From: Eledone cirrhosa
Taxonomy: Eukaryota
Length of the DNA: 64,000 bases
Assembly: GCA_964016885.1 (NCBI GenBank)
Contig: OZ024750.1
Coordinates: 27,280,001-27,344,000, forward strand
Reading direction: 5' to 3'
Part shown: piece after piece, positions 30,701 to 36,700 of the stretch
Layout of the letters: the number at the start of each line of letters is the position of its first letter
Numbering within the stretch: position 1 is the first letter of the stretch
Notes under the pieces: generated by a model
Seen by the model: the letters and a program-made list of their open reading frames with translations, nothing else
Database searches by the model: none
Told to the model about the DNA's origin: nothing
Made by a program: the position numbers and the translations under genes

Positions 30701-33700
30701 ATTTGCTCCTACACAAGGGGCATGTACCATTTGTATCATTATTTCCCATTTTCCCATTTTTTCCCATTTGGTTCTGGCTCCTCTGGCGTAGGACAGAACA
30801 AAGGAGAGGCACACAAACAAAGAAAAGAATCCCCAGTCACTGAAGAGGTCACAGAATATGTGACGAAAGAACTTTATATATACAAATATATACACATCAA
30901 CGCCTGCAGCTCCATTATCCTTCGCTGTCACCTCTCACTCTCTCTATGTCCCTCTTTCAATCTACTCGTTTACAACCACTATCTATTTCTCTCTATCTTT
31001 CACTCTCTCTTGTGTCTGTGGGTGTGTGCTGGGTGCAAGTGTGTGCGTGCAGGTGTGTATGTGCATGTGTGTGTGTGTAAATATGATGTTTAATATTGAA
31101 ATCTTATATATATTTCAGAATGCCGAATAGGAAAGTTTGGTGTTAATTGTAATGGGACATGCCATTGTATCAACAACACAAACTGTGACCAGCGAAATGG
31201 AAGTTGTGCAGATGGATGTACTGCAGGTTATACTGGTGACAATTGCCAAGAAGGTATATCATAAACTTGTTACATAATTACTATAATTACTATATACACA
31301 CACACGGATATATATGTGTGTGCGTGTGCATTTGTGTGTGGGGGTGAGGGTGGGGGGCAGGTGTGTGCGTGCATGTGTTTGTGTGTGTAAATATGATGTT
31401 TAATATAGAATCTTATATATATTTCAGAATACCGAACAGGAAAGTTTGGTGTTAATTGTATCAACAACACAAACTGTGACACTCGAAATGGAAGATGTTT
31501 AGATGGATGTACGGCAGGTCATATTGGTGACAATTGCCAAGAAAGTATATGATATACTTGTTACGTATTTACTACACACACACACACACACACACACACA
31601 CACACACACACACACACACACACACACACACACACACACACACACACACACACACACACACACACACACACTCACATATGTATATGTATGCTTGAGATTG
31701 TGTGTGTGTGCATGTGCTTCCGTGTGTTTGTGGAAATATGATGTTTAATATAGAAATTGCTTCTACGGGACTAGAATAGTTTCATCCAAAGAAATCTACA
31801 GGAAACGGCTTTCCTGATTATTACTTTTGAATGAAATAGTTTTAATAGTTCTAAATGTATATATATATAATTATAACTGAATATAAAAGAAAAACGAACA
31901 CAGACATATACATATATGTGTACAAATCGCAATGGAGTTTCTAACTCAATATATACCTTTGATATATTCGGCTCCGTTAATTTGTTTAGCTAATTCAAAT
32001 GTCGAATAAACCCTGCTGCTATTTTTAGTGGTGTAAGTTTGCGATACACGCAAAGTTCGGATACCATGGGCGTTATTATATATACGCACACTATACCCTT
32101 TTTTAATATACTTAGAAGTGACCCGGATACTAATAATTCTTCACCCGCTGATCAGCAAGAATTGGTATTCCTCTTCATAATTAATACGAAACATCATTAT
32201 CAAAGATGTCCGGGTGATTGGAAGTTACCACAATTCCTGTTCGTATTTACTTTCTTGATTTATTCTTAAATTGAGTCTGGAAAACTCTATTGTCTATAGT
32301 TAGTATTCTTTTCACCTTAGCGAATCTGCTCCCTTGCGATTTGAACACATATATGTATATGTCTGTGTTCGTTTATTTTTTCTTTTATATTCACTCTCCT
32401 AATGTTATTTTATTGTAAGAGACTATTTTGGGTTTCTAACTCATTATATACATTTGATATATATATGTATGTATATATATATATATATATACATAATATA
32501 TATATATATATATATATATATATATATATATATATATATATATATATATATATATATATATATATATATATATATAAAACAGGAGAAGAAAGAATACTGC
32601 TTGGTTGCACATGGGTTACATATGATAAAAATAGTCCTTCATCAGTGATTTTCCAACCTTCATTGGTATTTCATGACTTTAAAAATCATATAACTCCAGT
32701 TGGTGCGAGCAATAGGTAAATAAAGTAAATCGCGTAAAGCCAGCGAGACGAGTAAACAAACATAGAAGGAGAGCAACGCAAAGATAGGAAAAAACAAGCA
32801 CATGGGAGTCCGATCAGCTTTAGCTGTGTGGATTTCATGGGCGAGAGACTACAGACCGTCCGACGCGAGTGAGGTGTGAGCAGGATAAGACCCCCACTAC
32901 AGGCCAAACGGGAGGAAGTGAGAAGGGGAGAAGCAGAGAGTGAGTGAGTGGAAGTGCGAGGAAGAGGCCAGTCGAGAGAAAGTGTAACTGACAGAGGGGG
33001 CGAAAGAAGGTGAGAGAAACAGAGAAAACGGGGAAGCAGTAAGAGAGAAACAGACAAACGCAGCTGGGGAAAATATATATAAAAAACATGAGAAGAAAGA
33101 ATACTGCGTGGTTGCACATGGGTTACATATGATAAAAATAGTCCGACATATATATATATATATATATATATATATATGTATATACAAATATATATATACA
33201 AATATATATATATATATAGGGAGAGAGAGAGAGAGAGAGAGAGAGGGGGGGGAGAGAGAGAGAAGGAGAGATAGAGAGAGGGCAAGAATGAAGTGTTCAT
33301 TCTACTGACATGGCTATGAAATGGAGGCTTGTTTGCATAATTGCAAACTAATCGATTGTTATTAATATTCGAAAAACTCAGATTACATTCATATGCATAC
33401 TTATATATGTATATATATATATATGTGCGTGTACGTGTGCGTGTATGTGTGTGTGTGTGTGTGTGTGTGTGTGTGTGTGTGTGTGTGTGTGTGTGTGTGT
33501 GTTAATGTAATTGAGGCTTGTTTGCATACTTGCAAGCGAATCGAATGTTATTATTAATATTAGATAAACTCAGAGTACATTTATATATATATATATATAC
33601 ACACAGAAACGGCCACGTCACAGTTCTTAGCCATTTTGAATTCGTTTCTGGCTGGGATCACTTAAGAAAATTCTTTGTCCAAATGAGTTTGTTTCCTGAT

Positions 33701-36700
33701 GAGTTCGAAGCTCGAGAATTTATCCTTGATAGGATATTTCCGAAAGCGACGAAACCGTAACGGTAGAAACATAATCCTGGTATGTGTATATGCATTTTTT
33801 CTCCTAACTTTAATTTTATACCTAATTGTGTATGGTTGACGGTATATTTAATCGATTTCCACGTGCTATTGAAATGTTGGGTAAATATTCTATACCGGTT
33901 GATCGCGAATAAATTGCTAACGTTTATTTATCTACTATTTCTTCATATGTGCCTTTTAATCTTATAGCCTGGTTTAATTGTTTTTTTGTGTGGTTGATTA
34001 TGCTAATTGGGACAGGAAATGGTGTATATATATTATCAAATGATTCTATGGACCTACTTTATAGCATATTACTCTGATGACTTTGTCTAGTTTGTGTATA
34101 TGTAAATCTTCATATTTGATAATCTCCCATAAGGTTGAGATGCAATTTGGGCAATATTGGGCTGCGCTTTCTAGTAAACAGCCCACTCGCCGTAAGCCAC
34201 CAATCAAATTCTTTCTGGCTTGACCACTGCCACGTCACAGTTCTTAGCCATTTTGAATTCGTTTCTGGCTGGGATCACTAAAAGAAAATTCTTTGTCCAA
34301 ATGTGTGTGTTTCCTGATGAGTTCGAAGCTCGAGAATTTACCCTTGATAGGATATTTCCGAAAGTGAACGAAACGCTAAGGGTAGAAACTTAATCCTGGT
34401 ATGTGTATACGCATTTTTTCTTCTACCTTTAATTTTATACCTAATTGTGTATGGTTGACGGTATATTTAATCGATTTCCACGTGCTATTGAAATGTTAGG
34501 TAAATTTTCTATAGCAGTTGATCGCGAATAGATGGCTCTCGTTTATTTATTTACTATTTCTTCATAGGTGCCTTTTAATCTTATAGCCTGGTTTAATTGT
34601 TTTTTTGTGTGGTTGATTATGCTAATTGGGTTAGGAAATGGTGTATATATATTATCAAATGATTCTATGGACATACTTTATTATATATACATATATATAT
34701 ATATATATAATTTTAATATAGATGAGATTCTACAGGACTTGAACTGTTTCATTCCTTAGAAATCATCATGAATCTGGCTGTCCCAAATAAATGTTGTGGT
34801 ATTTATATCATTTCTGGTGGTAGGAGAGGGTGGGGAGTGGGATGGGTGGAGGACTTTGATTGAAAGAAAAAGGAATAGATTAAAAGCTAATTCTTTAAGG
34901 CTATAATTTATATTTAGAGTGAATCTCATCAATATTAAAGTGTTTATACTCTCCTATGTATTGAGTACCTTACTTACTGTGGTTACCTCCGATTCAACCC
35001 GGAATAACTTACCTTATATATATATATATATATATATATATATATATATATATATATATATATATATATATATATATATATGGAAAAGAATGAAATGAAA
35101 TGTCATTTCTCACCCTTAGTACGGCTGATACTTAAATATAAGTATGTATACGTACATACATATATGTGTAAAGACGCACAGTAGTATGTATATATACATA
35201 CATGCAGTCATATATGTATATATATACGCATGGGTTTACCGAAAATTTATTATAATGTTCGATTTGTTTGTAAACAAACAGCCCGAATTACGCCGCACAG
35301 TGCTCGGCAACCATCGTCGACCTTTTTTTTGTTCAACACTGACACAGGAACGATGTACTAGTTTCAAGCTTATTAGCTATCGTCAGCATTGTATACCTTT
35401 CTGTCAGATGATTGAACGTCAGAAAGTATATACTTTACTTATGCATATTAACGGCTGAACAGCCTAATTTGCTTATCGAGTGAGTTAGTTGGCCGGGCAT
35501 ACCGAAAACGATAAATGGAAAAGAATGAAACGAAATTTCATTTCTCACACTTAGTACGGCTGATACCTGAATATAAGTATGTATACGTACATACATATAT
35601 GTGTACAGACGCTCAGTAGTATGTATATATATATATACATGCACACACATATATATGTACCTATATGTACCATTTATTATAATGTTCGGTTTGTTTGTAA
35701 ACAATCAGCCCGAATTACGTGTATATATGCGTATGTGTGTGTTTGTGTGTGTGGGTGTGTGTGTGGTGCGACTCTGTATGTGTGTGTGTGTGTGTGTGTG
35801 TAAATATGATGTTTAATATAGAAATCCTATATATATATTTCAGATTGCCCAGTAGGAAAGTTTGGTGATAATTGTAAAGGGACATGCCATTGTATTAACA
35901 ACAAAAACTGTGACCCGCGAAATGGAAGATGTTCAGATGGATGTACTGCAGGTTATACTGGTGACAATTGCCAAGAAGGTATATCATAATCTTGTTACAT
36001 AATTACTATAATTACTATATCCACACACACACACGGATATATATGTATGTGGGTTACATATGATAAAAATAGTCCGACATATATATATATATATATATAT
36101 ATATATATATATATATATATATATATATATATATATATATATATATACATATATATACAAATATATACATACAAATATATATATATATATATAGGGAGAG
36201 AGAGAGAGAGAGAGAGAGAGAGAGAGAGGGAGAGAGAGAGAGAGAGGGGGCAAGAATGAAGTGTTCATTCTACTGACATGGCTATGAAATGGAGGCTTGT
36301 TTGCATAATTGCATACTAAGCGATTGTTATTAATATTTGAAAAACTCAGATTACATTCATATGCATACTTATATATATATATATATATATATATATATAT
36401 ATATATATATATATATATATGTGTGTGTGTGTGTGTGTGTGTGTGTGTGTGTGTGTGTGTGTGCGTGTGTGTGTGTGTGTGTATGTGTGTGTGTGTGTGT
36501 GTGTGTTTGTGTGCGTGCGCGTGTGTGTGTGTGTATGTGTATATATTAATGTAATTGAGGCTTGTTTGCATACTTGCAAGCGAATCGAATGTTGTTATTA
36601 ATATTCGATAAACTCAGAGTACATTTATATATATATATATATATATATATATATATATATACATACACAAACGGCCACGTCACAGGTCTTAGCCATTTTG

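Follow-up and report, generated by a model that had tools for sequence, protein, structure and literature searches.

In a 64,000-nucleotide (nt) stretch of the Eledone cirrhosa genome (contig OZ024750.1, forward strand, C10:27280001-27344000; hereafter the window), four cassettes, each carrying a pair of type I hammerhead ribozyme motifs 619 nt apart, lie in predicted introns of an EGF-repeat gene. We consider it very likely that the cassette goes back to one insertion of a dispersed non-coding hammerhead repeat (a non-long terminal repeat (non-LTR) retrozyme with a unit of about 683 nt), likely placed in (TA)n by a Penelope-like reverse transcriptase (RT), and that a 64-nt deletion and duplication together with EGF exons followed, the copies being predicted to decay without a host role. 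As a locus this is most likely a passenger in decay, a transposon copy multiplied through exon duplication, and carries little weight in itself. The element belongs to an already known kind, and the part worth following is the footprint of cleavage at the level of the whole family.

Hammerhead cassettes and the dispersed family

Structure-aware motif scanning gave nine type I hammerheads in the window, four pairs with 619-nt spacing and a lone copy, all on the + strand (Table 1), in agreement with the pairs listed in a first-pass annotation of this DNA. The site after 49045 was picked up by a looser scan, since its first stem II pair is broken and the stricter scan passes over it. Position 4587, given in that annotation for the lone copy, is where its stem I begins. 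In each hammerhead stem I has 5-6 bp, CUGANGA and GAAA are spaced 48-49 nt apart, and stem III is short and near-palindromic; none of the nine copies has a damaged catalytic core. The upstream ribozyme of cassette 1 has a palindromic stem III and a stem II that lacks one base, and the G-G mismatch in stem III noted earlier is indeed carried by every downstream copy. The Rfam search proposed as a check gave no match to the hammerhead families at gathering score (the best sub-threshold match was one Hammerhead_3 at 16 bits versus 48.5, E 4.3), because of the 48-49-nt stem II insert; the long stem II reveals a hammerhead class overlooked by Rfam. Another proposed check, a genome-wide copy survey, was productive. 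Three family patterns match the 3.0-Gb genome exactly at least 370, 280 and 476 times, counting both strands, and their reversed controls have no match, which excludes chance for the 27-nt ribozyme pattern (280 matches) and indicates a dispersed family with at least 476 copies of one motif.

With unit position 1 defined as the first base after cleavage, cassette 1 is composed of positions 526-683, then 1-683 minus 64 nt, and then 1-305. The cassettes have a common 5' junction and a common 3' flank, and are held in a 4.26-kb tandem duplication (33424-40308 versus 37681-44567) that is 98% identical including the flanks. Upstream repeats are 96-98% alike among cassettes and downstream repeats 96-99%, and the two repeats inside one cassette are 94% alike. 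Because the cassettes were duplicated together with their flanks, the equal spacing and shared orientation amount to one event: the four pairs are one old insertion, later duplicated along with host exons. The fourfold 619-nt spacing was therefore correctly seen, but it does not constitute four independent observations. Nor is a special meaning of the length or of the sense orientation supported, since there was one insertion, the deletion junction that defines the 619-nt form occurs five times in 3.0 Gb, confined to this locus, and the family unit is about 670-693 nt. A fifth cassette (L005) lies 26 kb upstream of the window, and the lone copy was apparently left when recombination between the repeats of a cassette removed one unit. 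The longest stop-free frame of the cassette has 89 codons and the longest Met-started frame 61, in keeping with the earlier statement that the unit holds no long open reading frame (ORF).

Family copies have variable 5' ends, inverted 5' pieces and partial tandems, together with a fixed 3' end 305 nt past the cleavage site that is followed by (AT)n. The 3' end falls at unit position 299-305 in 26 of 30 ribozyme-pattern loci, at 415 in one and elsewhere in three. A 3'-end sample was also drawn (90 analysed out of the first 100 listed pattern matches); among the matches listed, 58/90 cross the cleavage site, 24/90 are longer than one unit, 8/90 are long enough for two cleavage sites and 15/90 adjoin an inverted piece. 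An AT repeat of at least 8 nt follows the 3' end in 71/90 of these listed matches, a count biased by the search pattern, which itself ends in TATATA. Target-site duplications are unreadable by eye inside the (TA)n flanks. The unit in dispersed multimers is typically 683 nt, and up to three full units stand in tandem at one locus (L022). Several subfamilies, down to about 78% identity, retain the ORF-free unit and the ribozyme, and the G+C content (GC) of the family is 0.35. Three contig sets of one sample contain the family, and none of their pieces spans the cassette.

Animal non-LTR retrozymes were defined in PMC7229834, with circular RNAs in coral, mussel and axolotl. Like them, the family has one type I hammerhead per tandem unit, dispersed dimers to multimers, no ORF and a GC of 35%, under the 45-50% bound of that class. 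The earlier description thus has support: the partial tandem repeat of hammerheads is of retrozyme or Penelope type, lacks coding capacity and lies in introns, in the same sense as the host exons. The 683-nt family unit (619 here) is above the 150-450 nt given by Cervera and de la Pena 2020 (PMC7229834) and within the 51-972 bp of a preprint in which retrozymes are non-autonomous Penelope derivatives (Li, Clavereau and Pollet, 10.64898/2026.07.22.740005); the family differs further in its 48-49-nt stem II insert, and no pseudo-long terminal repeat (pLTR) match to a parent was found among the RT and GIY-YIG loci sampled. The classes named in the portions of the preprint drawn on here include no mollusc. 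An intronic copy is ordinary, because 42-44% of Xenopus retrozyme copies are intronic according to the same source.

Stem I covaries, a further point against a chance motif; covariation was counted in 41 chosen intact-core rows of 76. One stem I pair is UA in 20, CG in 13 and UG in 7 of the 41 rows, and 25 cells are altered on both sides compared with 9.3 in shuffles; as the rows are related this represents few events, and the count, made on the predicted structure of one intact copy, leans towards that copy. RNAalifold did not recover the full hammerhead on the family rows, and of the 12 pairs by which the long stem II is extended, two are open in 27/41 and 20/41 rows.

Three minor features of cassette 1 may be added. 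The first ribozyme departs from its sister duplicates in stem III (33756-33764) by two changes with pairing kept (C-G to G-C), possibly a template-switch repair of the palindrome. Penelope-like elements contain introns, and GTATGT at 33780-33785, 15 nt past the cleavage site, resembles a splice donor and could, in sense orientation, serve as a cryptic one; some subfamilies have GTAAG there. CCAAT and GCCACGTCA motifs at 34195-34245, which precede the cleavage site by about 180 and 155 nt and are kept across subfamilies, may form an internal promoter.

Insertion ends at the cleavage site

Of the copies long enough to reach the hammerhead, about one in five stop at the cleavage site. In sample 1, which is the 3'-end sample with one duplicate removed, 11/89 insertions start at -2..+16 against 3.1 expected under a constant stop rate (P 4e-4; this interval was picked after seeing the data, and the scan-corrected P is 0.046). 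Sample 2 was drawn with a pattern at unit position 52 (70 loci from the first 100 listed; 8 loci removed for overlap with sample 1 or with each other; 68 occurrences, among them inverted pieces and multiple units from the same locus). Against six references, 13 of the 63 copies reaching the site stop at -2..+16 against 2.0 expected (P 6e-8), 12 of these 13 at -1..+8, and the next 76 nt hold 0/50 stops. A one-reference count for sample 2 (6/70 ends at the site) was replaced by the six-reference count, since diverged subfamilies had been mis-called at position 33. A 5'-end cluster at unit position ~590, tried as a start site, was gone in a larger sample. In the control, a young autonomous Penelope-like element (70 analysed among 9908 exact 3' ends, with ends classified by alignment), 3/55 stop at the site and 6/52 in the next 76 nt (Fisher P 0.029), so that the step down at the cleavage site distinguishes the family from the autonomous element.

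The simplest reading of this concentration of 5' ends at the site is cleaved linear RNA as the template, and the pile-up suggests a record of self-cleaved RNA being used as template in vivo. For Penelope hammerheads, a dimer model and a circular-template proposal have been put forward without in vivo evidence (PMC4209133). In the literature searched (mainly openly accessible papers, in part), neither this family nor a concentration of 5' truncations at a hammerhead site was found described. We think it probable that the family is a fossil record in which roughly one-fifth of the insertions reaching the hammerhead stop at the scissile bond, cleaved linear RNA being the template of a germ-line Penelope-type RT and the rest being read through as from ligated circles. 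If true, mapping the 5' ends of copies would be a general, sequence-only assay of which genomic hammerheads cut in vivo, and the step at the cleavage site makes this testable using assemblies alone.

The proposed course of events is as follows. Source copies would be transcribed and would self-cleave; the enzyme of an autonomous Penelope-like element would nick (TA)n, and cDNA synthesis would start inside the RNA at position 305. With cleaved linear RNA as template the RT would run off at the cleavage site, as in the one-fifth of copies above. The read-through copies need circles or uncleaved multimers as template, and these would give inserts of more than one unit such as the cassette. The inserted copy would then have lost 64 nt, been multiplied with the EGF exons and decayed.

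A less likely origin of the pile-up, which concerns this side result only, is RT stalling at the folded ribozyme or joining by TA microhomology, without RNA cleavage. The extended stem I spans unit positions 1-15, the 5' ends peak at 6-8 in a short TAAT, and other 5'-end clusters lie at internal TA runs; moreover, for Penelope-like elements PMC11167929, which describes internal initiation at AT-rich targets, found cleavage dispensable in vitro, and in the portion of that paper drawn on here no RNA reads ended at the site. Either of these, however, fits poorly with ends that are bounded at the scissile bond and absent from the next 76 nt, where the longer stem II lies, with a pile-up that persists across subfamilies differing in sequence there, and with an autonomous element that lacks such a step. 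We therefore regard this origin as doubtful.

Several points weigh against the scheme of self-cleavage, Penelope-type mobilisation and circular templates. Self-cleavage of the family and its circles are putative, and the folding penalties are predictions: among the dispersed intact-core copies, 11-23 of 68 are predicted to pay at most 2 kcal/mol and 26-46 of 68 at least 5. The clusters of apparent 5' ends at internal TA runs count here as well. Repeats within one locus are no more alike than copies from different loci, so that circular and linear multimeric templates are indistinguishable. Among thousands of candidates, 50 RT and 60 GIY-YIG loci were sampled and gave no homology of the repeat to an autonomous element, and no ORF continuous with the unit was found in 90 5' flanks or 155 further loci.

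Predicted folding of the window copies and their host gene

With the hammerhead fold enforced, the predicted cost is about 0.5-2 kcal/mol for intact family copies and 5-9 for the seven distinct window copies; over three flank sizes, 9/9 window ribozymes are predicted to be 5-11 kcal/mol off the active fold. The hammerhead is the predicted minimum-energy structure of intact family ribozymes and not of the window copies. In cassette 1 the upstream ribozyme is predicted at about 6 kcal/mol off the active fold and the downstream one at 6-10, a stem II hairpin change in the latter favouring an alternative pairing over the cleavage site; the downstream copies are generally predicted to favour a pairing that buries this site. 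Dimer cleavage depends on a stem III duplex, which is predicted at -14.8 kcal/mol in the family sequence but reaches -10.4 in cassettes 2-4 and -3.7 in cassette 1. The window ribozymes are thus predicted to be misfolded.

These predictions bear on the proposal of the first-pass annotation that the cassettes are active in the host pre-mRNA, a double cut freeing a 619-nt linear or circular RNA and altering EGF-exon splicing, which we regard as very improbable. The cassettes are sense and intronic with nine intact cores, the host exons look functional (all 150 genomic matches of one EGF exon are stop-free), the intronic CPEB3 ribozyme affects its host mRNA and intron cleavage can modulate splicing (PMC10274809), and a protein-assisted hammerhead is on record (PMC11167929). 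Monomer release from these copies is nevertheless made less credible by the predicted penalties, the weakened dimer duplex and the G-G mismatch in each downstream copy; splicing survived intron cleavage in constructs cited in PMC4410947, only 1/9 predicted dimers was cleaved in vitro according to preprint 10.64898/2026.07.22.740005, and sister EGF introns across 264 kb are without the element except for direct duplicates.

Amniote intronic hammerheads are examples of host-adopted intronic ribozymes. The window copies resemble such ribozymes (as CPEB3, PMC10274809) in that the self-cleaving motif is intronic and lies on the sense strand; the adopted ones, however, are conserved and single-copy, whereas the window holds a recent repeat insertion with destabilising changes.

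Thirteen EGF-like exon matches lie in the window, all on the + strand as are the hammerheads; their match to Pfam EGF_STAB1-2 is below its cut-off, and a search with one EGF exon for homologues found no named one. As the four cassettes are on the same strand as the EGF-like and transmembrane exons, their predicted position is within introns of an EGF-repeat gene with a single membrane pass, a gene model built on splice signals rather than transcripts. The host gene sits in a large tandem cluster. EGF-like exon arrays form two large clusters, C10:25.88-27.33 Mb and C2:310-315 Mb, and four transmembrane exons on C10 are strongly divergent in sequence and still hydrophobic, which suggests that the EGF-array genes may be a fast-evolving receptor family.

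Table 1. Features of the window. Cleavage sites are predicted, by the structure-aware scan except that after 49045 (looser scan).
Feature	Position	Strand	Remarks
Cassette 1, 5'-truncated partial tandem of retrozyme	33609..34688	+	(TA)n-type tracts on both sides
Upstream type I hammerhead, cassette 1	33690..33771	+	cleavage after 33765; stem I 6 bp, 48-nt stem II insert
Inter-site stretch, 619 nt	33766..34384	+	35.5% GC, no long ORF; family unit minus 64 nt
Deletion junction defining 619-nt form	34062..34090	+	5 genomic matches, every one at this locus
Downstream type I hammerhead, cassette 1	34309..34389	+	cleavage after 34384; stem III G-G mismatch
Cassette 2, duplicate of cassette 1 insertion	37886..38965	+	cleavage after 38042, 38661
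Cassette 3, duplicate	42151..43230	+	cleavage after 42307, 42926
Cassette 4, duplicate	48270..49349	+	cleavage after 48426, 49045
Lone copy	4505..4966	+	cleavage after 4662; 5' junction and flanks as cassettes; downstream-type ribozyme
Host EGF-like exon, 135 nt, AG/GT	35844..35978	+	downstream of cassette 1
Sister EGF-like exons	31119, 40101, 44360, 50471, 50790	+	flanking other cassettes
Predicted transmembrane exon, 97 nt, AG/GT	54958..55054	+	host gene of four cassettes
Paralogous transmembrane exon, 97 nt	12164-12260	+	

Penelope-like elements and other hammerheads

The fixed 3' end past the hammerhead, the 5' truncation, the inverted 5' pieces, the partial tandems and the microsatellite target are those of a non-autonomous Penelope-like derivative. 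Neptune-type Penelope-like elements (PMC4209133, PMC8557442, PMC11167929) share these features, with a (TA)n target and a short palindromic stem III. The family differs from them in having no RT or GIY-YIG frame, and in a 4-bp stem III with which intact copies are predicted to fold as a monomer. An autonomous Penelope-like element would have an RT plus GIY-YIG ORF between pLTRs, and no ORF was found in or joined to the unit. In the genome, several families have intact RT plus GIY-YIG frames, four of them with the CxxxxCxxC linker, a Neptune-type motif tied to (TA)n targeting (PMC8557442). The parent Penelope-like element that the first-pass annotation suggested looking for did not emerge from the RT and GIY-YIG loci sampled; L137, tried as a parent junction, is actually a 78%-identical subfamily copy adjoining a truncated element.

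It is highly improbable that the repeat is a pLTR from an autonomous Penelope-like element with full-length copies that escaped detection, which would make the window copies truncated fragments. The insertion anatomy matches, the genome searches scored the best 40-150 candidates each and a Penelope-like ORF fragment lies upstream or downstream of a unit at four loci (L049, L246, L351, L137), but copies over one unit run into another unit and never into an ORF (24/90 among the matches listed), the adjacent ORFs are of different families, two of these ORFs terminate in a (TA)n tail of their own ahead of the unit, and the same unit without an ORF is retained in several subfamilies, down to 78% identity.

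The young Penelope-like element that served as the control above is present in the window at 7366-9453 as an inverted pair, with a GIY-YIG end, its own minimal hammerhead and a (TA)n tail; it is 99% identical to many copies, with 9908 exact 3' ends. Elsewhere, at eight loci (L119, L121-L126, L140), near-identical intact 796-codon RT plus GIY-YIG frames follow a long upstream frame and have a 3' region rich in microsatellites; the motif scan found no hammerhead at these loci.

The window also contains hammerheads of other families. One family forms near-perfect palindromes with 177-nt arms at 36922-37276 and 41181-41535, in the introns of cassettes 2 and 3, with one ribozyme per strand (predicted cleavage after 37223 and 41482 on the + strand and after 36975 and 41234 on the - strand) and a further copy at 21383 (-). 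Two hammerhead-like motifs of still other families lie at 55860-55935 (+), which also has a long stem II insert, and at about 60400-60460 (-).

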